42,021 nucleotides of DNA from a virus. Positions 1 through 42,021 of the stretch are shown here, piece after piece; positions within the stretch are counted from its first letter, which is position 1; each line of letters opens with the position of its first letter. The notes under the pieces are model-generated. The model had not been told where the DNA came from and searched no databases. It saw only the letters and a program-made list of their open reading frames with translations. The DNA lies in the UHGV virus genome UHGV-0390817; one strand, 5' to 3'. The position numbers and the translations under genes were made by a program.

Positions 1-18
1 CCTGCGCCCGCATACGCG

Positions 19-79: not shown

Positions 80-436
80 ATGCTAGAAAAAGAGCTTGAA
101 AAGAAATTCACGGAAGCAGTGAAGAAATGTGGCGGTATCGCATTCAAATTTGTCTCCCCCGGTAATGCCGGCGTGCCGGACCGGCTGGTGGTCCTTCCTG
201 GAGGCCGCATCGGGTTCGTGGAGCTTAAACAGGAGGGGAAGAAAGCGACAGTACTGCAGAGTAAAAGGATACATGCCCTAAGGGAACTGGGGTGCGCAGC
301 TTGTGTGCTTGACCGGGAGCCAGATATAGGCAGGGCAATCATGTACATAGCGTCAGATGCGGGAAAGGATCCGGCCTGGCAGGACTGGAAACTGAAGGAA
401 TTCCTTGAGGAATCGAGAAAGCGGGAGCAGCCATGA
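80..436 (+). CDS. VRR-NUC domain nuclease (PD-(D/E)XK fold)
   Basis: 118 aa with the motif GVPDRLVVLPGGRIGFVELK, typical of the VRR-NUC family. The RBS aagaggagg lies upstream of the ATG. The gene sits immediately upstream of, and translationally coupled to, an SNF2 helicase, as is common in phage replication modules. Confidence 0.7.
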   Translation: MLEKELEKKFTEAVKKCGGIAFKFVSPGNAGVPDRLVVLPGGRIGFVELKQEGKKATVLQSKRIHALRELGCAACVLDREPDIGRAIMYIASDAGKDPAWQDWKLKEFLEESRKREQP

Positions 437-3284: not shown

Positions 3285-3702
3285 TATGATAGAGGCCTTG
3301 CGGCTGGCTGCCGTAGGCCAGGAGATTAATATTATGGCGCCGAATACCTCGGAGCCGAAACGATGGGCGGACTATTCCCCGGATACACTGCAAAACCTGC
3401 TGGAGGGCTGCCTGTTCTTCCGGAACGAACCTGCAATGGATAATTTCGAGCTTGAACGTATGATGCGTGGTGCCCCCCCCATTGACAAAAATAAAAGCGG
3501 ATCCAGGGATTCCGGCGTGGAAGATAGGTCCGCAGTGGACGGTCATCCCAAACGGGCCAAGAGGGTAGACAAAGGCAAGGTGATGGCGCTGCATGAAGCA
3601 GGCCGGAGCAACCGGTGGATTGCGGATGATATGGGGCTGCATGAAGGGACAGTGTGCAGAGTTCTAAAGGAGATGAAGGAGGAGAACCGTGAGAAAGATT
3701 AA
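3265..3702 (+). CDS. hypothetical protein with a C-terminal helix-turn-helix
   Basis: The RBS aggagg precedes the ATG at 3265. The C-terminus KVMALHEAGRSNRWIADDMGLHEGTVCRVLKE looks like an HTH. Confidence 0.5.
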   Translation: MFVKQIDMIEALRLAAVGQEINIMAPNTSEPKRWADYSPDTLQNLLEGCLFFRNEPAMDNFELERMMRGAPPIDKNKSGSRDSGVEDRSAVDGHPKRAKRVDKGKVMALHEAGRSNRWIADDMGLHEGTVCRVLKEMKEENREKD

Positions 3703-4332: not shown

Positions 4333-4547
4333 GAAAGAAAAGCAGTAAGCAGTCCAAGGTCAGCCGCATCGACCGCAGCAAGGCCCTGGCCGCCCAGGCG
4401 GACGAGGCAATCAAGGAGCGTATCCGAACGGCGCCAGCCTACATGTACACCAGCCTGTGCCCGGTTCCGGGACTGCGCAGGCTGCCGAAGGGAGTGATAC
4501 GGTACTATGAGACAATGCTACATAGACAACGGGCATCACGGGTGTGA
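4329..4547 (+). CDS. small basic hypothetical protein
   Basis: Internal ATG of the track ORF 4224..4547, coupled to the upstream small ORF. Confidence 0.4.
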   Translation: MRKKSSKQSKVSRIDRSKALAAQADEAIKERIRTAPAYMYTSLCPVPGLRRLPKGVIRYYETMLHRQRASRV

Positions 4548-4621
4548 TGGCCAGCGCAACAACAAGGGCAGGATACGGTACGGGTGCTGGGCGTGCCCGT
4601 ACCTGGATGCGGGAGGAGGTG

Positions 4622-5128
4622 ATGCCGGTGAAACAGACGGTAGCATTGGAGGAAGTGGCCAGGCTGGCCGCAAGGGAAGCCCTTAAGGAGCATGAGAAGC
4701 AACTCCGGAGGGAAAAGAGAATAAAGGTATTCCAGAACACCAAGAAGCTGATGGAGAATTATAACCGCATCTGTCAGAGCGTGGAGGAGGGAGTGGCAGA
4801 ACTGTCCGACATGGATAATGGCGATGAACTGGAGGAGTTCACAGAGGAAGATATCTTTATCAACAGTATCCTCAAGAGCAAGCTCCGGAGTATTGTCATG
4901 ATAGGACACATAGACAAGTGCTTGAGGCTCCTGGAGGATGAGGAGTGTCGGAAGAATACGCATGAGAAGTATCTGGCATTCAAGTATTTCTATCTGGATG
5001 GGATGACATACGAAAGTATTGCAGAGATTTACGGATATGGGGAGCGGACAGCCAGGCGGTGGATAACGGAACTTACGGGGATTCTTAGTGTATATCTCTT
5101 TGGGGCTGATGCCCTCATGCTGGATTAG
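4622..5128 (+). CDS. ArpU/RinA-like phage late transcriptional regulator with a sigma-70 region-4-like HTH
   Basis: The C-terminus YLDGMTYESIAEIYGYGERTARRWITEL is a region-4-type HTH. Its position, upstream of the packaging genes, is typical of ArpU-family activators in Firmicutes phages. The start is taken at the ATG after the RBS gggaggaggtg; the track ORF begins at 4544. Confidence 0.55.
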   Translation: MPVKQTVALEEVARLAAREALKEHEKQLRREKRIKVFQNTKKLMENYNRICQSVEEGVAELSDMDNGDELEEFTEEDIFINSILKSKLRSIVMIGHIDKCLRLLEDEECRKNTHEKYLAFKYFYLDGMTYESIAEIYGYGERTARRWITELTGILSVYLFGADALMLD

Positions 5129-5132
5129 ATAC

Positions 5133-5150
5133 TTGACAGGAGCGTGTCAA
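5133..5150. promoter_or_regulatory. palindrome TTGACA-N6-TGTCAA, followed by further TGTC repeats; a possible operator overlapping a promoter
   Basis: The sequence is read directly, and TGTCC, TTGTCA and TGTCC follow at 5156-5170. Confidence 0.35.
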
Positions 5151-5160
5151 AATCGTGTCC

Positions 5161-5189
5161 TTGTCATGTCCGTTTGGATGATTTATAAT
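5161..5189 (+). promoter_or_regulatory. sigma-A-like promoter: -35 TTGTCA, 17-bp spacer, -10 TATAAT
   Basis: Near-consensus hexamers with 17-bp spacing, just downstream of the late regulator gene. Confidence 0.4.
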
Positions 5190-5254
5190 TGTAATATGCA
5201 GAATTGGATGAAGCGGAAAGCTGATTGATTTTGCACCCTCCCCCACAAATAGCG

Positions 5255-5296
5255 GCTACCAGGCGTTACAGCCTGGTGGCTGATTAGCCGGTTTTT
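5255..5296 (+). terminator. putative intrinsic terminator after the late regulator gene
   Basis: A 10-bp stem GCTACCAGGC/GCCTGGTGGC with one G-U pair and a 6-nt loop. A small GGCT/AGCC hairpin and GGTTTTT follow. Confidence 0.4.
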
Positions 5297-5468
5297 GTGT
5301 AATCCCTCATAAGACAGGCCTGTACTTTAACGGGACAATGCCGCAGGGTATGCAAGCAGTGATGTATCTGGTTTTATCCCCCATGACGTTTTCCAGATAC
5401 GATTAGGGCATCCTAGAGATAGGGTGTCCTTTTATTATGAGTAGCTTATACTCATTAAATATTCTAAT

Positions 5469-5497
5469 TTGACAGAATCGAACATTTGTTCTATACT
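5469..5497 (+). promoter_or_regulatory. promoter of the accessory island: -35 TTGACA, 17-bp spacer, -10 TATACT
   Basis: Consensus -35, exact 17-bp spacer and a 5/6 match at -10. A second extended -10 TGaTATAAT lies at 5586-5594, just before the RBS gggggac and the ATG at 5626. Confidence 0.55.
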
Positions 5498-5625
5498 GTG
5501 GTTACGAAGAGAAGATGTGGATGTGTTTTTGTAAGATTTGTGGAATTGGGAGGGGGATATTTGTATATTCTTTCCATTCGGTGTGTGATATAATGTAAGA
5601 AAAACGTCGAATTGGGGGACATAAA

Positions 5626-6609
5626 ATGGATAAAAAGCAAAGTGCAAATAATGAGAAAAAGGTATCAGTGGCTAATTTTAATGTAGTTTTTATGGGGGAC
5701 AAAGATGAGAGTCCGTTACTGGATTATTTTGACACTATTTTAATGCCGGCTTTGAAAAGTGGAATTACAAGAAGCCAAGGGGATAATACCTATTTGCTTA
5801 TGGATATTGAAGTTAATCAGGATACGGATTGTGAATATATATTGACAGGGTTGATTGTTAAAAGTACAGTTCTTGAAGTTAAATCTATGTTTGATGAGAA
5901 CGGGAATTTGGTCGAAAGAAATGATGTTTATCCAACGGCTCCATTTTCTACTTTTATAATTTACCTAAAAAATCATAGAATGATTTTAGTTGAAAATCAA
6001 AAAGGAAGTCCATCTTTGGACAGCTTCCGCTCAACTGTTAAGTATGTTTTAGATACGTACGTTGCAAGAGAGAACCATGCAAGAATGGAGCAGGAGAAAG
6101 AGCAGCTTCCAATTCCTCTTGTCAGTGTCGTGGGAATACCGCCTAAGGGTGGCATGATAGCGGCATTAAAACAGGTAGAAAAAATTTCAACATTGACTTT
6201 GAAGTTTTATCCGTTGAATGGTGATGGAGATATAGATTTATCTGAGATAATGAGCGGGATATCAAAAGAATTGCGTAGAAAAATAGGAAGTGATCGGGGA
6301 TCGGTAACATACCGATCACCAAAGAATATTAATGGAGTTATAGAGGTAGTAGAGGCAGCGGAAGGTACAGTTGAGCCTATTGTGGTGGCGAAGTATCCAG
6401 GAAGAAAAGGGGAATCCACGATTAAGTATAATGAAATATCTGATAGGAGAAAAATGCGCGTACCCGATGGAGAGAGAAATGCAGAGTTATCCAGCATGAT
6501 TAATCAGGGAAAAGAAATTGACAGTATAAATTATACTAGTGAGGAAAATAATAAAATATATTTGAGAAATCAAGGGAAAATAATAAAATTTGTTCGTAAG
6601 GAAAAATAA
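5626..6609 (+). CDS. unknown 327-aa cytoplasmic protein, first gene of the AT-rich accessory operon; candidate defence or abortive-infection component
   Basis: Clear RBS and ATG. GC content is far lower than the surrounding phage genes (roughly 33% against about 52%, estimated by eye). No recognisable catalytic motif. It is co-operonic with a 4-TM protein. Confidence 0.75.
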   Translation: MDKKQSANNEKKVSVANFNVVFMGDKDESPLLDYFDTILMPALKSGITRSQGDNTYLLMDIEVNQDTDCEYILTGLIVKSTVLEVKSMFDENGNLVERNDVYPTAPFSTFIIYLKNHRMILVENQKGSPSLDSFRSTVKYVLDTYVARENHARMEQEKEQLPIPLVSVVGIPPKGGMIAALKQVEKISTLTLKFYPLNGDGDIDLSEIMSGISKELRRKIGSDRGSVTYRSPKNINGVIEVVEAAEGTVEPIVVAKYPGRKGESTIKYNEISDRRKMRVPDGERNAELSSMINQGKEIDSINYTSEENNKIYLRNQGKIIKFVRKEK

Positions 6610-6631
6610 ACAATTTTGGAGGGGGATGATT

Positions 6632-7264
6632 ATGGATAATTTAAATCTTGATAATATTGAACAATTACTTCAATCTGAACCTTCTGAAAAGTTACTTTTT
6701 AAAGCAATCAAAGCTCTTAAAGTTGAAAAGAAGAATAGGAAATCACGATGGATATTAGTAGTTATATGTTGTATCCTCGGTTCCATAGTCGGAATTCATA
6801 AAGAAACAGTCACTATTTTCAGAGAAAGTATAGATGCTATTTTAAATGTTTCACTAGCACTTTTCGGAGTAATTTTCACTGGATATTCCTTGCTACAAGC
6901 CTTTATGAATAAACAGATGTTACTTCAACTTCTAAAAGACACAAAAGTATGTGACGGAGGAGAAAAGAGTAGATTACAAGATATCAATGAGAATTTTGTA
7001 TATTTAATGCTATTGTATGTTATTGCGATAATTGTAACATTGATTATGAAAATAGTGATGTTTTGTTTGCCTGACAGTTTTACATTATTTTTAAACATGA
7101 TAGTAAATAATGTGATTGCAGTAAGTTTAATTGCGGTTTATTTTATTTTTATTGGAATAATACTGTGGAGGACAGTTAGTTTCGTTTCTACAATTTTTCA
7201 ACTGTTCAATATATATGCTGTGACAAGAGTTCTTGAAATGATAGATGAGGAAGAAAAGCCATAA
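6632..7264 (+). CDS. small 4-TM membrane protein (about 210 aa), second gene of the accessory operon; candidate membrane effector
   Basis: The RBS ggaggggg precedes the ATG at 6632, 22 nt after the upstream stop. Four hydrophobic helices are present (ILVVICCILGSIVGI, NVSLALFGVIFTGYSLL, VYLMLLYVIAIIVTLIMKIVMF, VIAVSLIAVYFIFIGIILW). Confidence 0.7.
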   Translation: MDNLNLDNIEQLLQSEPSEKLLFKAIKALKVEKKNRKSRWILVVICCILGSIVGIHKETVTIFRESIDAILNVSLALFGVIFTGYSLLQAFMNKQMLLQLLKDTKVCDGGEKSRLQDINENFVYLMLLYVIAIIVTLIMKIVMFCLPDSFTLFLNMIVNNVIAVSLIAVYFIFIGIILWRTVSFVSTIFQLFNIYAVTRVLEMIDEEEKP

Positions 7265-7289
7265 TTTATCATATAAAAGGCGATGATTA

Positions 7290-7319
7290 GGGGCCACCTC
7301 CGGGCGGCTCTTTTTCTTT
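7290..7319 (+). terminator. putative intrinsic terminator closing the accessory operon
   Basis: A stem GGCCACC/GGCGGC(T)C with one A-C mismatch, followed by TTTTTCTTT. Confidence 0.4.
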
Positions 7320-7344
7320 ACCAAAACGATTGGAGGTGAGCCAG

Positions 7345-7920
7345 ATGGCATTAACGCCAAAACAGAAGATATTTGCAGATGAATACCTGATTGACCTTAA
7401 TGCCACCAGGGCTTACAAGGTTGCGTATCCGAGCTGCAAGAAGGATGAGGCCGCGGCGGTCAACGGTAGTAAGCTGCTAAGAAATACTAAGGTTGCGGAA
7501 TATATCCAGGAGCGCATGAAGGACCGGGAAAAGCGTACTGAGATTACCCAAGATTGGGTGCTGGAGGAGCTGCGGAAGATTGCCAGTGCAAACGGCACCG
7601 ATTTTGCACATGTTGTGCGGGAGCCGGTTATCCGGAACAACTCTTATGTTGTGGATCCAGATACCGGTCAGATGCAGACAAGGGATGTGGTTCGAATAAT
7701 CCCGACCGAAGAACTGCCAGAGGAGAAGCGGGCGGCTATCTCCGCAATCAAAGAAACTAAGTTTGGAATAAACGTGAAAACCTATGATAGGGTAAGAGCC
7801 CTGGAGCTCCTGGGGCGCCATCTGGGGATGTTTAAGGATAAGGTGGAGCTGTCCGGTGGCCTCGATATCGAAAAGACCAAACTGGATGACCTGCTCCAGC
7901 AGATGCGTGGCGGTGGCTAA
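7345..7920 (+). CDS. terS: terminase small subunit (Terminase_2-like)
   Basis: The N-terminus MALTPKQKIFADEYLIDLNATRAYKVAY is characteristic of this family. The RBS ggaggtg is present, and the gene immediately precedes the large terminase. Confidence 0.85.
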   Translation: MALTPKQKIFADEYLIDLNATRAYKVAYPSCKKDEAAAVNGSKLLRNTKVAEYIQERMKDREKRTEITQDWVLEELRKIASANGTDFAHVVREPVIRNNSYVVDPDTGQMQTRDVVRIIPTEELPEEKRAAISAIKETKFGINVKTYDRVRALELLGRHLGMFKDKVELSGGLDIEKTKLDDLLQQMRGGG

Positions 7921-9269
7921 TGAGTGCGGAGAGATTGCTGCTGTCGGATAAGTACAAGGCGTTCCTGCGCTGTGACGCCCCGGTGGAGTTCCTGGAAGGT
8001 ACCACGGCTGCCGGCAAGACTACAGTAGGGTTGTTTAAATTTATGCTCAAGGTAGCCGAATCGCCCAAAAAGCTGCACATCCTGGCTGCGGATGATACAG
8101 GCGCCGCTGAAAAAAACATCATCCAGAAGGACCTGGGCATCCTGGATGACTTCGGCGTACTGGTGGAGTACAAGGGCAACGGCGGCGGTGGATATGACAT
8201 GCCTCACATCCTCTTCCACACATCCGGCGGCGATAAGATTATCTTTGTTGTCGGCTACGGCAACAAGCGCAAGTGGAAGGATGCACTGGGCGGCCAGTAC
8301 GGATGCTTGTACATTGATGAGATTAACACGGCAGACATTGAGTTTGTGCGTGAGGCCGCCATGAGAAGCGATTACCTGATGGCCACGCTCAACCCGGATG
8401 ACCCGGGCCTGGATGTGTATAAGGAGTATATCAACTGTTCCAGGCCACTGCCTGAGTGGGAAGATGAAACACCAAAAGAGATAATGGATGAATTACAGGA
8501 GGAACCAAAACCCGGCTGGGTGCATTGGTTCTTTTCTTTTGTCCATAACCTGGGCCTGAGTAAGGAGAAGCTGGACCAGATTATGACGAACACGCCCAAA
8601 GGAACGAAAATCTGGAAGAATAAGATTCAAGGCCTGCGTGGTAAGGCAACCGGCCTTATTTTCTCCAACTTTGAGCGGTCTAAGCATGTCATCACAGTCC
8701 AGCAGGCCAAGACACTGAAATTCAAGAAGTTCACAGCAGCCCTGGATACGTCCTATTCTAGCAAGTCCCCGGATACCATAGCCATGATATTTCAGGGGAT
8801 TACGGATGACCGGAAGCTTGTCACTCTGGCTGAGAAGGTCTATAACAACGCCAAACTGGATGTCCCGCTGGCCCCCAGTGATACAGCGGTTAAGTTTGTG
8901 TCTTTCCTGGAGCAGTGCCGCAAGGACTGGGGTTTTGCCAAGGATGTGTATATAGACAATGCGGACCAGGCAACCATCACGGAGCTGCGTAAGTATAAAC
9001 GGCTTAAAGGCTGTCTGTATAACTTCTGGGATGCATATAAACAGCTGGAAATCATTGACCGTATCAACCTGCAGCTGGGCTGGATACAACAGGGCTGTTA
9101 CCTGGTGGTGGATACCTGCGTGGAACATCTATCCGAACTGGATCGGTACAGCTGGGATGACGAGAAGGACAAGCCGGAGGACCGAAATGACCATACCATT
9201 AATGCCAATCAGTATGCATGGATACCATACCGGAACCTGATTGGATTTGAGGAGGCTGAGAAGAAATGA
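7920..9269 (+). CDS. terL: terminase large subunit (PBSX/XtmB-like ATPase plus nuclease)
   Basis: 449 aa. Walker A GTTAAGKTT is present. Its size and its position between the small terminase and the portal support the call. Confidence 0.9.
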   Translation: MSAERLLLSDKYKAFLRCDAPVEFLEGTTAAGKTTVGLFKFMLKVAESPKKLHILAADDTGAAEKNIIQKDLGILDDFGVLVEYKGNGGGGYDMPHILFHTSGGDKIIFVVGYGNKRKWKDALGGQYGCLYIDEINTADIEFVREAAMRSDYLMATLNPDDPGLDVYKEYINCSRPLPEWEDETPKEIMDELQEEPKPGWVHWFFSFVHNLGLSKEKLDQIMTNTPKGTKIWKNKIQGLRGKATGLIFSNFERSKHVITVQQAKTLKFKKFTAALDTSYSSKSPDTIAMIFQGITDDRKLVTLAEKVYNNAKLDVPLAPSDTAVKFVSFLEQCRKDWGFAKDVYIDNADQATITELRKYKRLKGCLYNFWDAYKQLEIIDRINLQLGWIQQGCYLVVDTCVEHLSELDRYSWDDEKDKPEDRNDHTINANQYAWIPYRNLIGFEEAEKK

Positions 9270-14880: not shown

Positions 14881-15285
14881 ATGCCAAACGAAATGAAATA
14901 TGGAAATGGGGATTGGCCTTCCGATTCCCCCATCAGCGGGGAGCGGCTGTCCACGTCCGGGGAATATACAGGACAACACAAAGGGACCGTCATTCAGGAT
15001 AGCCTTTATGACGCAGATAACGGGGCATATCTCAGAGCACGGGAGACAGTCCGGTATGGAACACTCACGCCAGATGCTGGGGATAGCAACTTCCCAGACA
15101 GACTTATTACTGTTGGATATACCGCCACGGGAGCAGTTAAGGAAATCTCCTTATCTGGAGTGACTTACAATACTAAAGACAAGGTATTTGAGAACGTCCC
15201 AAGCAAGACGGAATCATTTACATTTAAGGACGGGGAGACGCCTAAGACAGCAACTAATGTAGACGGTACATGGTCTGTTACATAG
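14881..15285 (+). CDS. hypothetical head protein, possibly a decoration protein
   Basis: Position in the head module only. Confidence 0.4.
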   Translation: MPNEMKYGNGDWPSDSPISGERLSTSGEYTGQHKGTVIQDSLYDADNGAYLRARETVRYGTLTPDAGDSNFPDRLITVGYTATGAVKEISLSGVTYNTKDKVFENVPSKTESFTFKDGETPKTATNVDGTWSVT

Positions 15286-15295
15286 GAGGTGCCTT

Positions 15296-15682
15296 ATGTC
15301 TTATGAACCCTATGTCACCTATGAGTACTACTGTGACGCATACAAGGGTAATGTAATCCCCATGGACGAGTTGGACAAGGCTCTTAAGCAGGCCAGCCGT
15401 CACATTGATTCCCTGACCTACAACCGCATTGTAGGTCGGGGATTTTCTAATCTGACGGCCTTTCAGCAGGAAACCATACAGGAAGTGGTCTGCCAGCAGG
15501 CGGACTTTGAGTATGAGAACACAGACGAGATAAACACCATCCTGCAGAGCTACAGCATCAATGGTGTGTCGGCACAGTTCGGCAGCAGCTGGAATGTATT
15601 TACAGACAAGGGTGTAGCCATGAAGCGCGATGTGTACGCCCTGCTGTCCCAGACGGGTCTGTGCTGCCGGTTAGCGAGGTGA
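15296..15682 (+). CDS. head-tail connector / adaptor (gp6 or gp15-like)
   Basis: 128 aa. Its position and size fit the Phage_connect_1 family. Confidence 0.5.
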   Translation: MSYEPYVTYEYYCDAYKGNVIPMDELDKALKQASRHIDSLTYNRIVGRGFSNLTAFQQETIQEVVCQQADFEYENTDEINTILQSYSINGVSAQFGSSWNVFTDKGVAMKRDVYALLSQTGLCCRLAR

Positions 15683-15686
15683 GGCT

Positions 15687-16025
15687 ATGAAATATCCATG
15701 CTTAGTACCAAAACGGCTATGTAAGACAGATATACATGTCCATCTGGAGTCGGAGGACACGGATAACCACGGTAAGCCGGAGAAGGTGCTGGACCTGAAA
15801 CTGAAGTGCAACTTCCAGGACAGGGCTAAGACCATTCTTACCGCGGAAAAGAAGCTGGTGCAGATAACCGGTGCAGCCCTGTTCCCCGGGGACATTGCCC
15901 CAGACTTCCCAACCTTAAGCGGAGGTACCGTAACTGTATTTGGAGAAGAGCGGAGGATTGAACAGGGGATGAAAGCCAGGAACCCGGATGGGACAGTGAA
16001 CTATTGCCAACTGGAGGTGGTTTGA
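15687..16025 (+). CDS. head closure / head-tail joining protein
   Basis: Position and size only. Confidence 0.45.
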   Translation: MKYPCLVPKRLCKTDIHVHLESEDTDNHGKPEKVLDLKLKCNFQDRAKTILTAEKKLVQITGAALFPGDIAPDFPTLSGGTVTVFGEERRIEQGMKARNPDGTVNYCQLEVV

Positions 16026-16405
16026 TGCAGGTTAAATCAACTGTAAAGATGAACTTCCCGCGGATTAAGCAGCTGACACAGGCAGCAGTGACCGCCCTGG
16101 AAATGACAGCGGAAGCCCTGCACACAGAGGTGGTGCAGGCGCAGGTGATGCCATTTGATACTGGACGCCTAGAGGAGGACAGTTTCTTTGCGGATTACAG
16201 CCATTCCAGACAGGAGAAGGCAACTCTGGTAGTAAGTACACCTTATGCGCGCCGCCTCTATTACCATCCAGAGTATGACTTCCAGACGGACGAGAACCCG
16301 TTTGCCGGCGGAGAATGGTACGAACCGTGGCTACCTGGTGGAGTAAGCCAGGATTTTGCCAGGAACGCATTTAAGCGGTTTTACAAGAAAGTAGGTGGTG
16401 TATGA
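16004..16405 (+). CDS. HK97 gp10-like tail component
   Basis: 133 aa. Position and N-terminal character support the call. Confidence 0.45.
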   Translation: MPTGGGLMQVKSTVKMNFPRIKQLTQAAVTALEMTAEALHTEVVQAQVMPFDTGRLEEDSFFADYSHSRQEKATLVVSTPYARRLYYHPEYDFQTDENPFAGGEWYEPWLPGGVSQDFARNAFKRFYKKVGGV

Positions 16406-16809
16406 TGCTGACCTTGGATGACATCCGGGGATACATAGGAGGCCTTGGGATTGCAGCTGACAGCAATGTCTATATCGGGAAACTGAACAGTAAGAAAGAC
16501 CATTCCATAGGCGTGTATCACCGGCAGGGCAGTGGTCCTCCCGTGATGGCCCTGGGTGGCCATGATTACAGCAGCTATGATGTCCGGCGTATATCACTGC
16601 TGGTCCATTGGGACAAGGATGTGCAGGCATCAGAGCGGTCCGCCTATGAGTTATATGAGAAACTTAAAAACGTATCCAGCCTATCCATAGGGGATACGCC
16701 CATCAACTGCATCATCCTTCAGGTCCCGGAACCGGTGGACGTGGGGACGGATGATAAGGGTGTCTACGAATATGTGATATGGCTGGATTTTGTATATCAG
16801 AGAAAGTGA
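16402..16809 (+). CDS. tail completion or tail terminator protein
   Basis: Position before the major tail gene. Confidence 0.4.
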   Translation: MMLTLDDIRGYIGGLGIAADSNVYIGKLNSKKDHSIGVYHRQGSGPPVMALGGHDYSSYDVRRISLLVHWDKDVQASERSAYELYEKLKNVSSLSIGDTPINCIILQVPEPVDVGTDDKGVYEYVIWLDFVYQRK

Positions 16810-16819
16810 GGTATAAGAG

Positions 16820-17269
16820 ATGGCAGATGCAGCAAAGGGAAAAGTGTATCCCGTGCATAACAATGTGTTTAAGTTTGGCACTGCGGGCCTTGAGAGTACA
16901 GATGAACAGATGGTGATGCCAGCCGATCTAGAGAACTTTGCACCATCCATAGACGGTACCGTTGAGGAGTGGTATTCCATGGATGCTGCCGGATGGGCCA
17001 AGGCTGCCATGACCGGTAAGAAACTTGGGTTCAGCTTCAAGGGAAAACGGTCGGTTGGGGACCCGGGGAATGATTATATTGCCGGCCTGGCGTGGAAGTT
17101 TGGACAGGACGTGATGACCAAGTTTGAGTGGACCATGGTCAGCGGAGCAAAGCTGGCCTGTAACGTAGTCGTTAATGTGACGACGCCCGGAGGTGGTGAC
17201 ACGACAAATATTGACGGTCTGGAGTTTGAGGTGACGGGTTATGGTAAGCCAACTTTCACTCCAGCGTAA
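16820..17269 (+). CDS. major tail protein
   Basis: 149 aa with a strong RBS, immediately upstream of the chaperone pair and the tape measure gene. No sheath gene is present, so the tail is siphovirus-type. Confidence 0.5.
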   Translation: MADAAKGKVYPVHNNVFKFGTAGLESTDEQMVMPADLENFAPSIDGTVEEWYSMDAAGWAKAAMTGKKLGFSFKGKRSVGDPGNDYIAGLAWKFGQDVMTKFEWTMVSGAKLACNVVVNVTTPGGGDTTNIDGLEFEVTGYGKPTFTPA

Positions 17270-17297
17270 TCATTAACAGTATAAGGAGGGTTAAACA

Positions 17298-17597
17298 ATG
17301 GCGAGAAAAGTAGATATCACGGATAAGCTGAGTTTTGAGGAAAACCCATCCCTTGTCATTAAGGGTGAGGTGCTGGAGGTCAATGCAGATGCCCCGACCA
17401 TGCTTAAGGTCATGGGACTGATGTCGGCAGATGCCCCCGGAATGGATGAAGTTCTGCAGGCCTACAACCTGATGTTCCCCGAAGAGTCCAAGAAGAAGAT
17501 TGAAAAGCTGAAAATCGGATTTAAGGATTTGGTTACAGTCATTATGGAATCCATACAGCTGATTACCGATGAGGTAGACAGCCCGGGAGAGCAGTGA
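17298..17597 (+). CDS. tail assembly chaperone (G-like)
   Basis: Small acidic protein directly upstream of the tape measure gene. Confidence 0.5.
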   Translation: MARKVDITDKLSFEENPSLVIKGEVLEVNADAPTMLKVMGLMSADAPGMDEVLQAYNLMFPEESKKKIEKLKIGFKDLVTVIMESIQLITDEVDSPGEQ

Positions 17598-28692: not shown

Positions 28693-30153
28693 CTATGATA
28701 TATAAAAATGAATATGTAAATGCCCTTGACTGCGGTCAAAAACAATCTCTTTGACTATCTTGCGGAGGGCATTCCCTTTTATCTCATAACTGATATTTGG
28801 GTCTGCCAGGATCTCATGCACATGCGCAATCTGGCGCATGATATCTTCCTTGCTTGGAACCTTGGCAGGAGACTGTTCTGCCTGCCTGCGGAGTCTTTCG
28901 GCATCAGCCATGAGTTCTTCCCTTTCAGCCTTCAGACGGAGCTTATTCTGCTTATATTCCTCCAGGGTGTCAATTTCATTCTCGTAAGCTTCCCTGATAC
29001 GCCGCTCCTTGACTTCTAAGCGGGCAAGTGCCTCCTGAATGGCGACTTCTTCGGCGTTTACAGCATCATCGGTTTTTTGGATGTATTCATATTCCAGTTC
29101 ATTTGTTTCAAGGACTTCTTCCAGAGATTCAATCACAGCTTTTTCCGCCAGGTGTACGGCCAGGCAGCAGGAACCCGGATGCATCCCCTTTGCATACTTC
29201 CAGCACTGGAAGAAGTCAGGCCGCTTCTTCTGGTCATTGGAACGATTGTAGCCAAGGCTGCCGCCGCATATGCTGCATTTGAGCAAACCGGAAAGCCAGT
29301 GGACATTGTTGGAAACCTCCCGGCGTTTCTGGGGCCGGTATTCCTTTTCAATCCGCTTCTGAACATCGTCAAATAGGGAGGTGACGGAGGAACGTACCTC
29401 GTGGGTGCCCTGGAAGGAATACCCATTCCATATGACCTCGCCAATATAAAAGCGGTTGGCAAGAATCCGGTTAATGCCCCGGCGGTCGAATAGGTTGCCG
29501 CGGCGGGTCCGGTATCCTCTGGCATTGGCAGCCCTGGCCGTGGCGGTCATATCCTTCCCGCTATGGTAGGTCTGGAAAATATATTCAACGATGGCATATG
29601 ATTTTTCCTCCACGACGAAAGGCTTGCCTTCCCCCACAGCCCGGTAGCCGAGGCAGGGGGTGGCCTGATAGCCTTCGCGGAGGGCCTTTTCCGTCATACC
29701 GCGCAACACTTCGCCGGAGAGGTTGATGGAATAATATTCGTCAAACCATTCTATTATGGTTTCGATTAGCCGGCCAAACATGCCCTCCATGATGGGTTCC
29801 GATACGCTCTTAATTTCTACATCACATTTTTTTCTCAGGATGCCTTTGTAGAAGGTGCTTTCCTCCTGGTTTCTGGCGAACCGGGAGAACTTCCAGAGAT
29901 AGAGCCGCTTAAATGGGGCCGGCTTCTGTGATTTGGCAATGGCTATCATGCGCTGGAACTCTGGCCGGTTGTCTGCTTTGCGGCCGGAGATTCCTTTCTT
30001 CTCAATAAATATGTATTCTTTGGGAATTATAAAACCGTCCGCCTTGGCAGCGTCCATGATGACGCGTATCTGGGCATCCGGAGACAGCTCTGTCTGATCG
30101 TCTGTGCTGACACGAACGTAGGCGGCGCCGATTTCTAGTGGTGTTGCTGGCAT
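28693..30153 (-). CDS. large serine recombinase (phage integrase)
   Basis: The N-terminal resolvase catalytic domain IGAAYVRVSTDDQ carries the catalytic Ser. A recombinase domain, a zinc-ribbon (CSICGG...C) and a C-terminal coiled coil follow. The start is taken at the Met after the RBS aggagatga; the track ORF starts at 30210. Confidence 0.9.
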   Translation of the reverse strand: MPATPLEIGAAYVRVSTDDQTELSPDAQIRVIMDAAKADGFIIPKEYIFIEKKGISGRKADNRPEFQRMIAIAKSQKPAPFKRLYLWKFSRFARNQEESTFYKGILRKKCDVEIKSVSEPIMEGMFGRLIETIIEWFDEYYSINLSGEVLRGMTEKALREGYQATPCLGYRAVGEGKPFVVEEKSYAIVEYIFQTYHSGKDMTATARAANARGYRTRRGNLFDRRGINRILANRFYIGEVIWNGYSFQGTHEVRSSVTSLFDDVQKRIEKEYRPQKRREVSNNVHWLSGLLKCSICGGSLGYNRSNDQKKRPDFFQCWKYAKGMHPGSCCLAVHLAEKAVIESLEEVLETNELEYEYIQKTDDAVNAEEVAIQEALARLEVKERRIREAYENEIDTLEEYKQNKLRLKAEREELMADAERLRRQAEQSPAKVPSKEDIMRQIAHVHEILADPNISYEIKGNALRKIVKEIVFDRSQGHLHIHFYIS

Positions 30154-30376
30154 TATATCATCTCCTGTTCCTATCATGTATATGAGTTTAGGGGATGTTT
30201 CAATTCTCATTTCGGTCCATATTATAACCCATATTACAGCCTGTAAGATTTTGGTGAGCTTTGAAAAAAGGGTATAAAAAATACGCCCCTTGCCAGGACG
30301 CTCCAGGAATGATATAATTTACTTGCTTAGGGTAATTATATCTTCCAGGCGTACCTGGTAAGAGAAAATCTATGTG

Positions 30377-36704: not shown

Positions 36705-37453
36705 TTGGAAGATTCAGGGCAAGTTACGCCCATGTGTTTGAGCCATCTACACCGCCAGGTGGTGGGGAGGCCAAATATCAGATAACCATGCTTATCCCAA
36801 AATCCGATGTGAATACATACAATGCAATTGTGGCAGAAATGAACCGTGCTCTTCAGGAGGGGCTGCAGAAAACGTTTGGCGGCCAGATGCCGGCAAGGCC
36901 ATCCATGCCCCTGTATGACGGTGACGGGACCAAACAGAACGGAGAGCCCTGGGGAGAGGAGTGCCGGGGCCATTGGGTACTGCGTGCATCAAGCAGGACC
37001 AGGCCTTCCGTGGTGGATATCAACATCCAGCCAATCCTTGACCCAAATGCATTTTATTCCGGCTGCTATGCCCGGGCAACCGTCAACTTTTATCCATACA
37101 ATACAAATGGTAACCGCGGAGTGGGATGCGGACTTAACAACGTGCAGAAAATTGCCGACGGGGAACCCCTGTCCGGCAGGACGACAGCAGAAGAAGACTT
37201 CGGCGGGTCCAATGCGTATGCAGGTTCCGCGGCAGCCCCGAACGGGTACGGCCAGCCGGCATATCAGGCTATGGGGTATTCCCAACCTGCACAGCAAATG
37301 CAGCCATACCAGCAGCCAGCAATGGGCGGATATCCTTCCGCAATGGCGTCTGGGTATTCAGCACCGCAGCCGGGGGCCCTGCCGCAGTACCAGCAGGCGA
37401 TTGACCCGGTGACGGGAAGGCCGCTGCCAGCCGGGGGAGTGATGGGGATTTGA
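36698..37453 (+). CDS. DUF2815-like phage ssDNA-binding protein
   Basis: The N-terminus MLVGRFRASYAHVFEP and a Gln/Pro/Tyr-rich tail are present. It is paired with a DUF2800 protein and a polA gene, a known cassette. Confidence 0.6.
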   Translation: MLVGRFRASYAHVFEPSTPPGGGEAKYQITMLIPKSDVNTYNAIVAEMNRALQEGLQKTFGGQMPARPSMPLYDGDGTKQNGEPWGEECRGHWVLRASSRTRPSVVDINIQPILDPNAFYSGCYARATVNFYPYNTNGNRGVGCGLNNVQKIADGEPLSGRTTAEEDFGGSNAYAGSAAAPNGYGQPAYQAMGYSQPAQQMQPYQQPAMGGYPSAMASGYSAPQPGALPQYQQAIDPVTGRPLPAGGVMGI

Positions 37454-39414
37454 GGACCCTGAGTATTGACATAGAAACATATAGCAGTGTAGACATCCGG
37501 AAATCAGGGCTGTACAAATATGTACAGTCCCCTGATTTTGAAATCCTTCTGTTTGCCTATGCTTATGACGATAATCCGGTACAGGTCGTAGACCTGGCAC
37601 AGGGGGAGAAAATCCCGTATTTCACGGTCATGGATCTGCACAGGCCCGAAGTCATGAAGACGGCATTCAATGCAGCATTTGAATATTACTGCCTCAGTAA
37701 GTTCTTTGAGACACATCTGGAGCAATGGCAATGCACCATGGTCCATGCCTGGTACTGCGGATATGCAGGAGGGCTGGACGCCATCGGCAGGGCCATGGAA
37801 TTTCCCGAAGACAAGCGGAAACTGTCTACTGGTAAGTCCCTGATTAAATATTTCTGTACCCCATGCGCCCGTACGAAACGGAACGGTGGGCGTACCAGGA
37901 ATCTTCCGGAACATGCCCCGGATAAGTGGAAGCTGTTTAAGGAATACTGTGGCCAGGATGTGGTGACCGAACGGGAAATCAAGAACCGGCTGGCGGAATA
38001 TCCCGTGCCTGCATTTGAGCATCAGTTATGGGTGATTGACCAGACCATTAACATCGGCGGGGTGGCCCTCGATACGGTCCTGATAGACGGAGCATTGGCA
38101 ATCAGTGCCCAAATGACGGAGGAACTCACGGAAAAGGCCCGGGATATCACAGGGCTGGAGAATCCGAACAGCGTAGCCCAGCTCAAACAATGGGTCATAG
38201 ACAATGCGGACGTGGAGATAGAGAGCCTGAACAAGCAGACGGTTGCAGACCTCCTGGCTCAGGAATCCGGAACCGATGACGTACAGGCTATGCTTCGGAT
38301 ACGTCAGGAGATGGCAAAGACCTCGGTGAAGAAGTACCAGGCCATGCAGGATGCGTTGTGTGATGATGGCCGGGTGCGCGGGCTCCTGCAGTTCTATGGG
38401 GCCTGCCGTACGGGAAGATGGGCCGGAAGGCTCGTGCAGGTGCAGAACCTGCCGCGTAACTATATTGACAGCCTGGATACGGCCAGGGAGCTTGTACAGA
38501 AACAAAAAATGGATGCCCTCCGGGTTATATATGGGAATGTGCCTGACACGCTCTCTCAGCTTATACGCACGGCCTTTATACCGGGAGACGGGTATATGTT
38601 CGCCGTGGCCGATTTCTCAGCCATAGAAGCGCGTGTGATTGCCTGGCTGGCCGGGGAGGAATGGCGTCTGGAGGTGTTCCGGACACACGGGAAGATTTAC
38701 GAGGCTTCGGCCAGTACCATGTTCGGGGTACCGATAGAGAAGATAAGGAAGGGGAACCCGGAGTACGCCCTGCGCAGTAAGGGAAAGGTCGCAGAGCTTG
38801 CCCTGGGATACCAGGGAGCCGCCGGAGCACTTATCCAGATGGGCGCCCTGCGGATGGGCCTTCATGAGGAAGAACTGCCGGACATCGTACAGAGATGGCG
38901 GGCATCAAACAAACGGATTGTGGACCTGTGGTACAGCATAGAGCGGCACGCGGCGGAATGCGTGGAATATGGTGTGATATCATCCCTGCCGAACGGCATT
39001 TCCTTCTCAAGGGACGCAGACCGGATGATGATCACTCTGCCGAGCGGCCGTAAGCTGTTCTACCTTAAACCCCGGATGATTCCGGACGAGAGGAATTACA
39101 AGCGGATATATTTCATGGGGCAGAATCAAAAGAGCCATAAGTGGGATCTGCTCCCGACCTACGGCGGCAAGCTCACGGAGAATATCGTACAGGCCGTGGC
39201 AAGAGACTGCCTGGCCAACGCCATGGTGAACCTGCATACGGCAGGATACCGGATTAACTTCCACATCCATGACGAGGTGATACTGGAAATTCCCAAGGGC
39301 GGCAGGCAGAGTCTGGAGGAGGCAATAAGCCTCATGTGCAGGCCTCCGGCATGGGCTGAGGGGCTTCCTCTGAATGCGGATGGATTCACAGGAGATTATT
39401 ACAAAAAGGAGTAG
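37450..39414 (+). CDS. family A DNA polymerase (3'-5' exonuclease plus polymerase domains)
   Basis: The N-terminal exonuclease motif LSIDIETYS is present. Polymerase motif B RSKGKVAELALGYQG and motif C HIHDEVILE are present. Confidence 0.9.
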   Translation: MRTLSIDIETYSSVDIRKSGLYKYVQSPDFEILLFAYAYDDNPVQVVDLAQGEKIPYFTVMDLHRPEVMKTAFNAAFEYYCLSKFFETHLEQWQCTMVHAWYCGYAGGLDAIGRAMEFPEDKRKLSTGKSLIKYFCTPCARTKRNGGRTRNLPEHAPDKWKLFKEYCGQDVVTEREIKNRLAEYPVPAFEHQLWVIDQTINIGGVALDTVLIDGALAISAQMTEELTEKARDITGLENPNSVAQLKQWVIDNADVEIESLNKQTVADLLAQESGTDDVQAMLRIRQEMAKTSVKKYQAMQDALCDDGRVRGLLQFYGACRTGRWAGRLVQVQNLPRNYIDSLDTARELVQKQKMDALRVIYGNVPDTLSQLIRTAFIPGDGYMFAVADFSAIEARVIAWLAGEEWRLEVFRTHGKIYEASASTMFGVPIEKIRKGNPEYALRSKGKVAELALGYQGAAGALIQMGALRMGLHEEELPDIVQRWRASNKRIVDLWYSIERHAAECVEYGVISSLPNGISFSRDADRMMITLPSGRKLFYLKPRMIPDERNYKRIYFMGQNQKSHKWDLLPTYGGKLTENIVQAVARDCLANAMVNLHTAGYRINFHIHDEVILEIPKGGRQSLEEAISLMCRPPAWAEGLPLNADGFTGDYYKKE

Positions 39415-39418
39415 GCTT

Positions 39419-41881
39419 ATGTTCGTGAATGACAGGAAAATCAGAATATCAGTAGGTACGAGCAGGAAAGCCACGTCATGGCACCGGCAGGAGCTCCTGT
39501 GGTCGGACTTCGTCCAACGGATATCCAGGCCGGAACGCACGGGTGAAACCTTTGCGGAGTATAAAGGGCTTACGAAGGCGCGTCAGGATGAATTAAAGGA
39601 TGTCGGAGGCTTTGTCGGCGGGGAACTGAACGGGGAGGCCCGCAGGAATGAGAACGCCGGTGACAGGCACCTGGTGACACTGGATGCGGACAACATCATC
39701 CCGGGAGGGACACAGGCGGTTCTGAATGCCGTGGAGGCACTGGGGTGTTCCTATGCCGTATATTCCACAAGGAAACATGAGGGCGCGGCCCCCAGGCTGC
39801 GCATCATCCTCCCGTTGGACGTGGCATGCACGGCCGATGAATATGAGCCTATAGCCCGGAAGGTGGCGGCTTTCCTGGGGATACAGATATTTGACCCTAC
39901 CACGTTTGAGCCGGTCCGGCTCATGTACTGGCCAAGCTGCAGCGCGGACAGCGAGTATGTATTTCTTTATGGGGATAAGCCATTCCTGTCAAAGGACGGG
40001 GTTCTAAGGCTCTACCAAAACTGGCGCAACGTGGCAGAATGGCCTGAGGTACCGGGGGCCGCAAAGCTCCGCGACCGGTCGGCAAAGAAACAGGGTAACC
40101 CGCTGGAAAAGCAGGGGGTGGTAGGCGCGTTCTGCCGGGCATACGATGTGACGGAAGCCATCGCACAGTTTATACCGGATGCGTACATCCCCTGCGGGGA
40201 GGGCCGGTATACATACAGCGAGGGATCAACCATGGGCGGCGCCGTATTATATGACGGCGGGAACTTCCTGTACAGCCACCATGCCACGGATCCGGCCAGC
40301 GGGAAACTCTGCAACGCGTTCGACCTGGTCCGCCTCCATAAATTCAACGAGGAGGATTATGACGCGAAACCGGAAACCCCAGTGACACAGCTGCCATCAT
40401 TTAAGGCCATGTGTGAGTTTGCCCTGCAGCAGGAGCCGGTATCCAAGGCAATGGCCCTGGAGCGGTACAGGAAGGCTCAGGAGGACTTTTCACAGCCTGA
40501 CCAGGGGGAGACAGAGGTAGTCCCGGATTTTGAATGGATGGGAGAGCTTAAGTGCAGCTCACGGACAGGGCAGCCCCTCAATACCATCGACAATGTCCTC
40601 ATTATACTGAACCATGACCCAAAACTGAACGGGCGGTTCTGGCATGATGAGTTCGCAAACAGGGCGGTTGTTGGACAGGCCATGCCTTGGGAGGCGCCGA
40701 AGGACAATTACAAGCTGAGAGCCTGGGCGGACGAGGATGACTCCGGGCTCAGGCATTATATAGAGAAAGTATACGGGATAACCGGGAAAGAGAGGATATA
40801 TGATGCAATGGCTGTATATGCGACAAACCATAAGCAGCATAAGATAAGGGAATATCTGACCGGGCTGGTCTGGGATGGTATTCCTCGTATTGATACCCTG
40901 CTGACTGATTATTTTGGGGCGGAGGACAGTACCTATACAAGGGAAGCCATGCGCAAGACATTGACGGCAGCCGTGGCCAGGGCAATGGTTCCGGGAATTA
41001 AGTTTGACAGCATGCTGATACTGTCAGGAGCCCAGGGAGTGGGAAAGAGTACCTTCTTCCGCTTCCTGGGAAGGGACTGGTATTCTGACAGCCTGGCAAC
41101 GTTTGAGGGCAAAGACGCCGCGGAGCTCATACAGGGATATTGGATTATAGAAGCCGGGGAACTGGCCGGTATGAATAAGTCAGAAATGAACACAGTCAAA
41201 CAGTTCATGAGTAAAACAGAAGATGTCTACAGGGAGCCGTACGGAAGGCGGACGAAGCCATTTCCGCGTTCCTGCATCATCGTAGGAACAACCAATGACA
41301 AAGAGTTCTTGAAAGACCAGACAGGCAACAGGCGGTTCTGGCCGATTGACCTTGGAAAAATCCCCAGCAGAAAAAATGTGTTTGGGCAGCTGCCGGGTGA
41401 GGTGGACCAGATTTGGGCGGAGGCCTTTATGAGATGGCAGTGCGGCGAGAAGCTGTTTCTGGAGGGAGCCGTGGCGGAAGAAGCGGTACGCCAGCAGGAG
41501 GAGCATAAGGAAAGCAATCCTAAGGAGGGTATCATCCGGGAGTTCCTGGGCAGAAAGATACCGGTTGACTGGAGCCGGAAGGACCTGGCAGCCAGGAGAG
41601 AGTTCTGGAACTTTGCGGGGCGGGATTATGATGAGAACCTGCTTTTGCCGCGTGACAGGGTGTGCGCAGCAGAGATATGGTGTGAATGCTTTTATGGGGA
41701 TTTGAAGATGATGAAGAAGTCGGATGCCCATGAAATCAACAGCATACTATCCGGTCTGCCTGGATGGGAACGGAGCTCCGGAGCCATTCCATTCGGCCCA
41801 TACTATGGAAAACAGAGGGGACATGTCTTAAGCCAGGAGGCAAGATTAGATTGTCGCCCGGCAACATTCCAAAAATTGTAA
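39419..41881 (+). CDS. primase/helicase (primase-polymerase N-terminus, P-loop D5/VirE-like C-terminus)
   Basis: Walker A GAQGVGKST is present. The protein is about 820 aa and adjacent to the polymerase gene. The start is taken at the ATG after the RBS aaaaaggag. Confidence 0.75.
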   Translation: MFVNDRKIRISVGTSRKATSWHRQELLWSDFVQRISRPERTGETFAEYKGLTKARQDELKDVGGFVGGELNGEARRNENAGDRHLVTLDADNIIPGGTQAVLNAVEALGCSYAVYSTRKHEGAAPRLRIILPLDVACTADEYEPIARKVAAFLGIQIFDPTTFEPVRLMYWPSCSADSEYVFLYGDKPFLSKDGVLRLYQNWRNVAEWPEVPGAAKLRDRSAKKQGNPLEKQGVVGAFCRAYDVTEAIAQFIPDAYIPCGEGRYTYSEGSTMGGAVLYDGGNFLYSHHATDPASGKLCNAFDLVRLHKFNEEDYDAKPETPVTQLPSFKAMCEFALQQEPVSKAMALERYRKAQEDFSQPDQGETEVVPDFEWMGELKCSSRTGQPLNTIDNVLIILNHDPKLNGRFWHDEFANRAVVGQAMPWEAPKDNYKLRAWADEDDSGLRHYIEKVYGITGKERIYDAMAVYATNHKQHKIREYLTGLVWDGIPRIDTLLTDYFGAEDSTYTREAMRKTLTAAVARAMVPGIKFDSMLILSGAQGVGKSTFFRFLGRDWYSDSLATFEGKDAAELIQGYWIIEAGELAGMNKSEMNTVKQFMSKTEDVYREPYGRRTKPFPRSCIIVGTTNDKEFLKDQTGNRRFWPIDLGKIPSRKNVFGQLPGEVDQIWAEAFMRWQCGEKLFLEGAVAEEAVRQQEEHKESNPKEGIIREFLGRKIPVDWSRKDLAARREFWNFAGRDYDENLLLPRDRVCAAEIWCECFYGDLKMMKKSDAHEINSILSGLPGWERSSGAIPFGPYYGKQRGHVLSQEARLDCRPATFQKL

Positions 41882-41972
41882 AAGGCAACAACGGGAACAG
41901 GATGCAACAATCCAATGTTGCTGTAAAAACCCTTGATTTTCAAGGCTTAAGCCCTTAAGCAACAGTAGCAAC
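41861..41972. repeat. cluster of GCAACA iteron-like repeats (five direct copies, one inverted), a CCTTGA-ttt-TCAAGG hairpin and a GGCTTAAGCC palindrome; a putative replication origin
   Basis: Direct copies at 41861, 41884, 41903, 41958 and 41967. The inverted copy TGTTGC is at 41916. The hairpin lies at 41930-41944. AT-rich sequence follows. Confidence 0.45.
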
Positions 41973-42021
41973 ATTCTTATATATAAAAATATAAAATAAA
42001 GGGTAATGTATATATAATACC

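Follow-up and report, generated by a model that had tools for sequence, protein, structure and literature searches.

A candidate replication origin of the SaPI type beside the primase-helicase gene of the temperate phage genome UHGV-0390817

The virus genome UHGV-0390817 was analyzed as one stretch of DNA of 42,021 nucleotides (termed the window hereafter), and this report concerns the non-coding region between its gene for a primase-helicase and the gene for a VRR-NUC-like endonuclease that follows. The region carries an array of short repeats (iterons), for which an original prediction, made from the letters alone, had proposed an iteron-type origin of replication at positions 41861-42021. 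The repeats were found there, but the region is larger than had been described: since the end of the window joins its start, the feature is one intergenic region of 219 bp (41882-42021 joined to 1-79) that spans the window ends. This gap, with the first repeats in the last approximately 30 nt of the preceding open reading frame (ORF), very likely represents the replication origin of the phage, and would be of the type known from the Staphylococcus aureus pathogenicity islands (SaPI), judging from its sequence, from structural models of the adjacent protein and from analogy with the SaPI origins.

Organization of the locus

The junction of the window end and start (...ATAATACC|CCTGCGCCCG...) is contiguous, with no base gained or lost, in all four IMG/VR contigs (95-97% identity) that were found with an exact 40-mer from the repeat region. 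The order of primase gene, gap, and homologue of the window gene at 80-436 was observed in each of the 33 loci of a first search with the primase protein, and, by the contig ranges, the primase match is far from the ends in most of these contigs. The window has no terminal direct repeat. A serine integrase gene (28693-30210, - strand) and an ImmA/XRE pair lie mid-window, and the window ends are therefore not the attachment (att) ends of a prophage. By its sequence, the window is a complete, circularly closed temperate phage genome; the circular or circularly permuted genome that had been proposed is supported by the contiguous junction, and the proposed absence of host genes agrees with the ORFs scanned, among which none was seen and all functional modules are present.

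Every motif was located on the window (Table 1). The hexamer GCAACA occurs in seven exact copies in the gap and the ORF end, five of them direct on the + strand (starting at 41861, 41885, 41904, 41959 and 41968) and two inverted on the - strand (41916-41921 and 49-54). Five direct copies and one inverted copy had been predicted to follow the stop codon; the five direct copies are real, but the first (41861) is located inside the final 21 nt of the primase-helicase ORF, for which the stop codon TAA is at 41879-41881. The repeat unit is longer than the hexamer and comprises approximately nine bases, GCAACAWTC. Three degenerate iterons were also identified (41852-41857, TGTCGC; 41894-41899, GGAACA; 33-41, GAATGCTGT, with 7 of 9 positions), the first of which is an exact TGTTGC in close relatives. 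Left of the centre there are five direct iterons and one inverted iteron; right of the centre there is one exact inverted copy together with the one of 7 of 9 positions. The 12-nt inverted repeat GGCAACAACGGG / CCCGTTGTTGCC is found at 41884-41895 and 44-55, for which the original prediction had the second arm right and the first off by one (41883-41894), and the hairpin, the palindrome downstream of it and the (TA)7 that had been listed with it are all present.

The whole-genome count of GCAACA is ordinary (31 copies, compared to 24.3 +/- 4.9 in shuffled sequences). Its clustering is unusual: six copies fall into one 120-bp interval, when every other such interval of the 42 kb contains at most two, and seven copies are found in 260 bp, compared to 24 in the rest of the genome (41.8 kb; Poisson p of approximately 3e-10, uncorrected for the motif having been picked afterwards). 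No second iteron cluster was detected in the 42-kb genome, even when one mismatch to the 9-mer was allowed.

A nearest-neighbour stability scan placed the least stable 30-, 40- and 60-bp duplex intervals of the whole genome at starts 41970, 41978 and 41960; the stability minimum sits directly after the tandem iteron pair. The single-strand fold of the gap is far below that of shuffled sequences (-37.8 versus -20.1 +/- 3.2 kcal/mol; z -5.6) because of the nested inverted repeats. The 24-nt tract at 9-32 is the longest alternating pyrimidine-purine run of the genome (the runner-up has 14 nt) and might promote the formation of Z-DNA or of a cruciform, or ease unstacking. The GC skew and cumulative skew were also considered for locating an origin, and were rejected because they merely track gene orientation, that is, they follow transcription and are uninformative on the origin.

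Table 1. Positions of the features at the primase-helicase locus and in the adjacent gap
Feature	Position	Strand	Remarks
Putative initiator gene (primase-helicase)	39374..41881	+	AEP-type primase approx. aa 1-350; helicase aa 380-715; C-terminal DNA-binding domain aa approx. 731-820 (predicted)
C-terminal domain coding region	41564..41878	+	From AF2 model
Predicted recognition helix SDAHEINSILSGL	41717-41755	+	From AF2 model
Beta-hairpin wing (predicted)	about 41765-41830	+	From AF2 model
Imperfect palindrome ATTGTCGCC/CGGCAACATTC	41850..41869	.	Inside ORF 3' end; iteron 1 plus degenerate inverted copy 41852-41857
Iteron 1 GCAACATTC	41861-41869	+	Inside ORF 3' end
Left iteron cluster	41885..41921	.	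Three direct copies (one degenerate) plus one inverted
Iteron GCAACAACG	41885-41893	+	Left cluster
Degenerate iteron GGAACA	41894-41899	+	Left cluster
Iteron GCAACAATC	41904-41912	+	Left cluster
Iteron GCAACATTG	41913-41921	-	Left cluster
Spacer with A5 run, hairpin and palindrome	41925-41953	.	A5 run precedes hairpin
Hairpin CCTTGA-TTT-TCAAGG	41931-41945	.	Terminator-like on - strand only
Palindrome GGCTTAAGCC	41944-41953	.	Overlaps hairpin
Tandem iteron pair GCAACAGTA-GCAACATTC	41959..41976	+	Start-to-start 9 bp; abuts AT-rich block
AT-rich block TTCTTATATATAAAAATATAAAATAAAGGGTAATGTATATATAATA, proposed DNA unwinding element	41974..42019	.	Genome stability minimum
Imperfect palindrome GGGTA...TACCC, left part	42001..42021	.	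Straddles junction, ends at window base 1
C-rich element CCTGCGCCC	1-9	.	Between AT-rich block and alternating tract
Alternating pyrimidine-purine tract CGCATACGCGTATATATATATATA, 24 nt	9-32	.	Ends in (TA)7 (19-32)
Right degenerate inverted iteron GAATGCTGT	33-41	-	7 of 9
Right exact inverted iteron CGTTGTTGC	46-54	-	Within CCCGTTGTTGCC (44-55)
Ribosome-binding site AGAGGAGG	65-72	+	Next gene starts at 80
VRR-NUC-like endonuclease gene	80-436	+	phrog_93 endonuclease, E 4e-25; weak VRR_NUC match; right border of non-coding region

The primase-helicase

For the primase-helicase, Pfam returned only a VapE-like P-loop domain (E 3e-80), and a PDB search matched its residues 380-743 to Rep1 of SaPI1 (PDB 7PDS chain A; E 6.7e-76), an entry that represents SaPI1 Rep1 bound to DNA according to the data statement of the corresponding paper (PMC9371898). 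The helicase part comprises a Rep1-like N-tier and a P-loop helicase.

An AlphaFold2 (AF2) model of residues 700-835 (136 aa; pLDDT 85.8) was significantly similar only to the six chains of 7PDS (E 5e-7 to 1e-5, TM 0.67-0.71, approximately 130 columns), and its next, non-significant matches include the winged-helix proteins forkhead, IRF and LmrR. The model has the order helix-helix-helix-hairpin, with SDAHEINSILSGL as the third helix and WERSSGAIPF...KQRGHVL as the wing. The AF2 model of residues 1-380 (pLDDT 86.6) had its best match in the archaeo-eukaryotic primase (AEP) domain of the PrimPol of cyanophage S-2L (6ZP9, E 4.6e-5), with other AEP enzymes among the weaker matches, and the residues D104, D106 and H135 (DxD and H) are invariant in 63 homologues. 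The N-terminal part is therefore modelled with an AEP primase fold, and a role as primase is predicted. Because of the helicase match, the C-terminal fold and the AEP fold, the label 'primase/helicase' given in the original prediction is reasonable, and the protein is a candidate for a three-part initiator that would combine a primase, a helicase and a DNA-binding domain.

The last approximately 15 codons of the gene (41830-41878), after the conserved ...YGxQRGF, are translated iteron DNA; the tail past this motif varies in length and sequence across lineages, as seen at the ORF ends of the loci L025 and L026 (e.g. VTFSENVTENVTKIDTFVTFDTFNVT in L025). In Staphylococcus phage phi12 (NC_004616.1, positions 15151-17538; locus L047), the whole primase-helicase is matched by tblastn in a single piece of 2.4 kb, at a place where the RefSeq record annotates only a coding sequence of 174 nt ('DNA helicase, similar to orf 11 of SaPI-1'), and the gene thus seems largely unannotated in the phi12 record.

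Conservation of the layout and change of the repeat in relatives

Relatives were found through the exact 40-mer and through protein searches, of which the second added 80 loci; a megablast of both window ends against the INPHARED phages gave no match. The gap between the two genes measures 142-412 bp in all 33 loci of the first search. In nearly all of 103 distinct downstream regions, a 7-mer is repeated 4-12 times on both strands within approximately 440 bp around the stop codon, and this locus-specific 7-mer has 0-3 occurrences in the other approximately 5 kb of the locus. For the window, the automatic top 7-mer was the palindrome CTTAAGC and not the iteron, and the window rows were left out of the iteron comparison.

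The repeats are specific for lineages, and comprise GCAACA, TGTAAACA, TGTTAACA, TCTAACA, GGAACAT, GGTAACC and others. For example, the repeats GTCAAC and TGTAAACA were found in L021 and L038 (79% and 78% protein identity to the window), TGAAACATT with 9-10 copies in L030 and L042 (54%), GATACA with 11 copies in L031 (54%), GGTAAC with 12 copies in L036 (50%), and TGTAACTT with 8 copies in L041 from Alicyclobacillus (57%). Two cultured phages have the same layout, i.e. Staphylococcus phage phi12 with TGATGCAACA, and Paenibacillus phage Pd_22F with ten copies of GTCAACA. A finding of the repeats being absent in relatives had been named as a refutation of the original prediction; the comparison showed that the repeat arrays are kept, and that their sequence shifts with the C-terminal domain.

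Whatever the iteron sequence, a tandem iteron pair with 8-9 bp spacing is located at the same position in the relatives inspected, and inverted iterons are found right of the centre also in relatives with other iteron sequences (0 to 3 right-side copies). Relatives with protein identities as low as 73% have the AT-rich block almost unchanged, and this block (with ...ATAAAATAAAGGG.AAT...), the C-rich repeats and the alternating tract reappear whichever iteron sequence a locus has; a GGG...CCC palindrome comparable to that of the window was found in relatives as well. In 82 of 102 distinct related loci (each of approximately 5.4 kb), the longest alternating run of the entire locus is found no further than 450 bp past the primase stop codon (median 17 nt, versus 12 nt elsewhere), and its sequence varies while the alternation is kept. 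The C-rich repeats in relatives are CGCCTAAT-type units in 2-4 copies (L031, L036, L037, L041, L048), with four in the Alicyclobacillus locus L041 at approximately 240-280 nt after the stop codon and with CCCTAATCTCTCTAATCCCCCTAA in Pd_22F; they are confined to one strand and independent of the iteron type.

In close relatives, substitutions are mostly located in the spacers, and not in the iteron cores or the AT-rich block. The loop of the hairpin (41937-41939) is either TTT or AAA among relatives of approximately 97-99% protein identity while the stem CCTTGA/TCAAGG is unchanged; this flip looks like an inversion, and would suggest that a hairpin or cruciform forms in vivo. The (TA)n at 19-32 ranges from approximately 6 to 9 units among close relatives, which is a microsatellite-like slippage within the putative origin. 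The gap is 94.9% identical in close relatives, compared to 91.7-94.3% for the flanking genes, a difference that is weakly informative.

In the loci L025, L026 and L037, which have the longest gaps (401-412 bp), the origin-like core is located directly after the primase stop codon, and an extra approximately 200-250 bp, seemingly with a small ORF, lie between this core and the VRR-NUC gene.

Swaps of the C-terminal domain together with the iterons

The identities of the primase, helicase and C-terminal parts were compared with the sharing of iterons among 96 complete proteins. For pairs with at least 90% helicase identity, the C-terminal identity was 78% when the iteron was not shared and 96% when it was shared, and the primase identity was 96-97% in both groups. 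The comparison is informative for near-identical pairs alone: L080 and L113 (primase 99.7%, helicase 100%, C-terminal domain 63.6%) with the iterons TCTAACA and TGTAACA, L055 and L056 (99.1%, 99.1% and 81.6%) with TGTAAACA and TGTTAACA, and L086 and L085 (97.6%, 98.7% and 79.5%) with TCTAACATTC and TCTTACATTC. In these swap pairs, the valley of nucleotide divergence starts approximately 180-300 nt before the stop codon, covers the recognition helix and the wing, and ends approximately 110-170 nt after the stop codon, just past the last left-hand iteron; at the AT-rich block, the identity is back to approximately 97%. From their sequences, the three pairs appear to be natural cassette swaps in which only the last 60-100 codons and the iteron field differ, and such a divergence pattern is what a matched specificity of C-terminal domain and iteron would predict.

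A simple recognition code was also sought in the predicted helix and rejected, in that position 4 of SDAxEIN varies and follows no one-to-one rule. No mosaic sub-domain was seen that links L021 to L027, both of which have the TGTAAACA iteron.

The gap as a candidate origin of replication

The SaPI Reps are self-loading helicases in which a C-terminal winged helix recognises iterons of five or six nucleotides (Qiao et al. 2022, PMC9371898), and ori binding is abolished in a SaPI Rep without this domain (PMC9371898). The SaPI origin comprises 6-12 iterons immediately downstream of the rep ORF (Ubeda et al. 2007, 2012, as summarised in PMC9371898) and an AT-rich centre with at least two iterons on each side, in opposite directions (PMC9371898). 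In the window, the gap is positioned directly downstream of the initiator-helicase ORF, as in the 33 loci and 103 regions; seven exact and three degenerate iterons represent the 6-12 short (5-6 nt) iterons; the AT-rich region near the array centre is found at 41974-42019; and the Rep-type AAA+ helicase with C-terminal winged helix is represented by the Rep1 match and the C-terminal model. In addition, one polypeptide is predicted to contain primase, SF3-type helicase and C-terminal DNA-binding domains, as in the type of P4 alpha and pRN1 ORF904. The proposed iteron-type origin beside the primase gene is thereby supported computationally, through a Rep1 homologue and through the same position and layout as in the SaPI1 origin.

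By homology with the SaPI Rep proteins, we infer a mechanism of binding, melting and priming. The phage's own primase-helicase would bind the GCAACAWTC iterons on either side of the centre through its winged-helix-like C-terminal domain, and two helicase rings would assemble face to face and melt the AT-rich block (41974-42019). The N-terminal AEP primase domain would lay primers on the opened strands, and these would be extended by the family-A DNA polymerase of the phage (gene at 37450-39414).

Several points weigh against this interpretation. Right of the centre, there are only one exact iteron and one of 7 of 9 positions, whereas SaPI origins have at least two on each side; and the conserved C-rich and alternating tracts lie outside the published description of the SaPI origin. 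The joint swap of C-terminal domain and iterons is explicable by linkage alone because the segments are adjacent, so that a single recombination tract carries both. At 40-90% helicase identity, a shared iteron was not tied to a higher overall C-terminal identity among the 96 proteins, and no single position of the recognition helix maps simply onto the iteron sequence.

Comparison with known systems

In protein and layout, the phage system resembles SaPI1 Rep1 with its origin, i.e. there is a homologous helicase, the same C-terminal fold, an origin directly downstream, an AT-rich centre and facing iterons. In SaPI1, however, the primase is a separate upstream gene, whereas the AEP domain is fused in the phage protein; SaPI1 is a satellite element, and the window a complete temperate phage of Clostridia-type hosts; and the phage has one exact right-side iteron and extra C-rich repeats and an alternating tract. 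PriRep5 of SaPI5 with ori5 (PDB 7OLA, 7OM0; PMC9371898) is also a primase-Rep fusion with an iteron origin just downstream, and needs its C-terminal domain for ori binding (PMC9371898); a phmmer comparison of PriRep5 with the window primase-helicase gave no sequence match (E up to 1). The SaPI Reps have themselves been called unrelated at sequence level (PMC9371898).

Cch2 of SCCmec binds AAGTG repeats downstream of its own gene via the C-terminal domain (Bebel et al. 2020, PMC7581432). It resembles the phage system as a self-loading helicase with direct repeats in the gap after its own gene, and its partner primase starts at the putative origin; it differs in having three AAGTG iterons, a separate primase of a different kind (CCPol-MP), and a helicase of a different subfamily. 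In the alpha protein of phage P4, too, primase, SF3-type helicase and an iteron-binding winged helix at the C-terminus are joined in one polypeptide (background, in part from PMC4234260), but its primase belongs to the bacterial Toprim type, and the iterons of P4 are divided between two separate regions (ori and crr) rather than forming one array that abuts the gene. In plasmid pRN1, the origin has been placed in a stem-loop that follows the gene of the AEP-SF3-winged-helix protein ORF904 (Berkner et al. 2014, PMC4234260), and the same arrangement has been described for some phages, among them the Bordetella phages BIP-1/BPP-1 (PMC4234260). The likeness of the window to pRN1 comprises the origin downstream of its own gene and the large stem-loop potential; pRN1 is an archaeal plasmid without iterons, whereas the stem-loop potential in the phage comes from facing iterons and palindromes.

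A conserved centre of the putative origin

The origin type itself is already known; the conserved centre, with its C-rich repeats and alternating tract, is an addition to the published SaPI picture. The centre comprises the AT-rich block, followed by the C-rich repeats (CCTGCGCCC; CGCCTAAT 2-4 times in relatives) and an alternating tract of 14-32 nt, and is kept across the lineages examined as the iterons change; in the L080/L113 swap, for example, the centre is approximately 97% identical and everything left of it is replaced. We tentatively consider, as a possibility with the odds against it, that this centre is a separate functional module independent of iteron specificity. It could be a fixed start site that is recognised by the AEP primase, or a structural switch (Z-DNA or cruciform) that is driven by supercoiling and sets off melting; the published model of the SaPI origin includes neither.

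Alternative explanations of the gap

An improbable alternative, though the best of four, is a transcription control region between two operons, with a terminator for the replication-gene transcript, a promoter for the genes downstream and the repeats as operators of a regulator. The gap is non-coding and located between co-oriented genes, it contains the hairpin at 41931-41945 and an AT-rich, TATAAT-like sequence, and downstream of it are genes for two proteins of helix-turn-helix or sigma-like type (3196-3702 and 4544-5128). However, a consensus scan predicted no sigma-70-type promoter on either strand of the gap, and the sole site resembling a terminator lies on the - strand, from which no gene is read (both scanned on L009, in which the gap is contiguous and 98% identical); the TATAAT-like strings are lost in relatives such as L041. 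Further, up to 12 repeats in both orientations around a stability minimum are the architecture of an origin and not of an operator, and the repeats change along with the C-terminal domain of the Rep1 homologue.

It is still less probable that the array is bound by protein for copy control, incompatibility/exclusion or partition and that the true origin is located elsewhere. Binding sites alone are no proof of initiation, and plasmid iterons also act in handcuffing and incompatibility; against this stand the lack of a second iteron cluster or of any other origin candidate in the genome, the lack of a ParA- or ParB-like gene among the ORFs scanned, and the position of the array, which encloses the stability minimum of the genome. 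In the homologous SaPI systems, the corresponding array functions as the ori.

The break of the window falls within the central palindrome (GGGTA...TACC|C), and some cos sites are typically symmetric and AT-rich; a packaging or genome-end signal (cos, pac or terminal-repeat boundary) would explain where the window is cut, and we regard it as very unlikely. The terminase genes are 7.3 kb off (7330-9269), the window lacks a terminal direct repeat as noted above, most related contigs run well past the region on both sides, and in every lineage the array accompanies the primase-helicase gene, also in the staphylococcal and Paenibacillus phages; a break at a (TA)n/palindromic low-complexity site is presumably a common assembly or rotation artefact.

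That the nested inverted repeats encode a structured RNA (small RNA, leader or processing site) is equally hard to credit: the strand folds far better than shuffled sequences (z -5.6) and the facing iterons that change together resemble compensatory pairs, but none of the Rfam 15 covariance models matched the gap (best E 0.62 and 0.89, well short of the gathering scores), most copies are direct, including the conserved tandem pair, which a stem leaves unexplained, and the duplex at the centre of the 'stem-loop' is the weakest in the genome.

Significance of the candidate origin

With the gap as the probable origin, a concrete candidate for an origin and its initiator is available for a very large family (at least 8000 homologues at E <= 1e-20) of temperate phages of Bacillota, many of them from gut metagenomes, whose replication has not been studied directly before. 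The approximately 100 C-terminal domains with their matching iterons, among them the three natural swaps, represent a data set for working out how this winged-helix domain reads DNA, and such paired data could predict which phages and satellites share replication proteins. For the window itself, the outcome is mainly one of annotation, i.e. a closed, complete genome in which the origin is, in all likelihood, located; the parts of most further interest are the conserved centre and the family-wide catalogue of iterons and C-terminal domains.

Gene content and further observations

The replication genes of the window comprise those for a DUF2800 nuclease, an Enc34-type single-stranded DNA-binding protein (SSB), the family-A polymerase, the primase-helicase, the VRR-NUC-like nuclease, an SNF2 helicase and an SSB. 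Genes for packaging and structure are represented by the terminase small and large subunits (7330-9269), portal, major head, tape measure and tail proteins, and lysis by an endolysin gene. Relatives occur in genomes of Clostridia and other Bacillota, and the source names of homologous proteins point to Lachnospiraceae; from these sequence matches, the host of the phage is probably Clostridia-like.

Just upstream of the terminase genes, an island of low GC content (approximately 5000-7300; GC 0.37-0.44, compared to 0.49 overall) was observed, in which the ORFs 5626-6609 and 6590-7264 have no PHROG or Pfam family match; the island may be recently acquired cargo. The ORFs 1803-2264 and 2212-2628 match residues 1-135 and 405-545 of phrog_15077, respectively, and could represent a single gene that has been split or shortened or is translated with a frameshift. 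The 3' part of the VRR-NUC-like gene (window 244-433) exists in two forms of 118 aa and 98 aa with approximately 74% identity, which were seen in L001, L003, L005, L011, L012, L015, L020 and L035, with flanks that are approximately 90-99% identical to the window; from the sequences, this variation looks like a local replacement.

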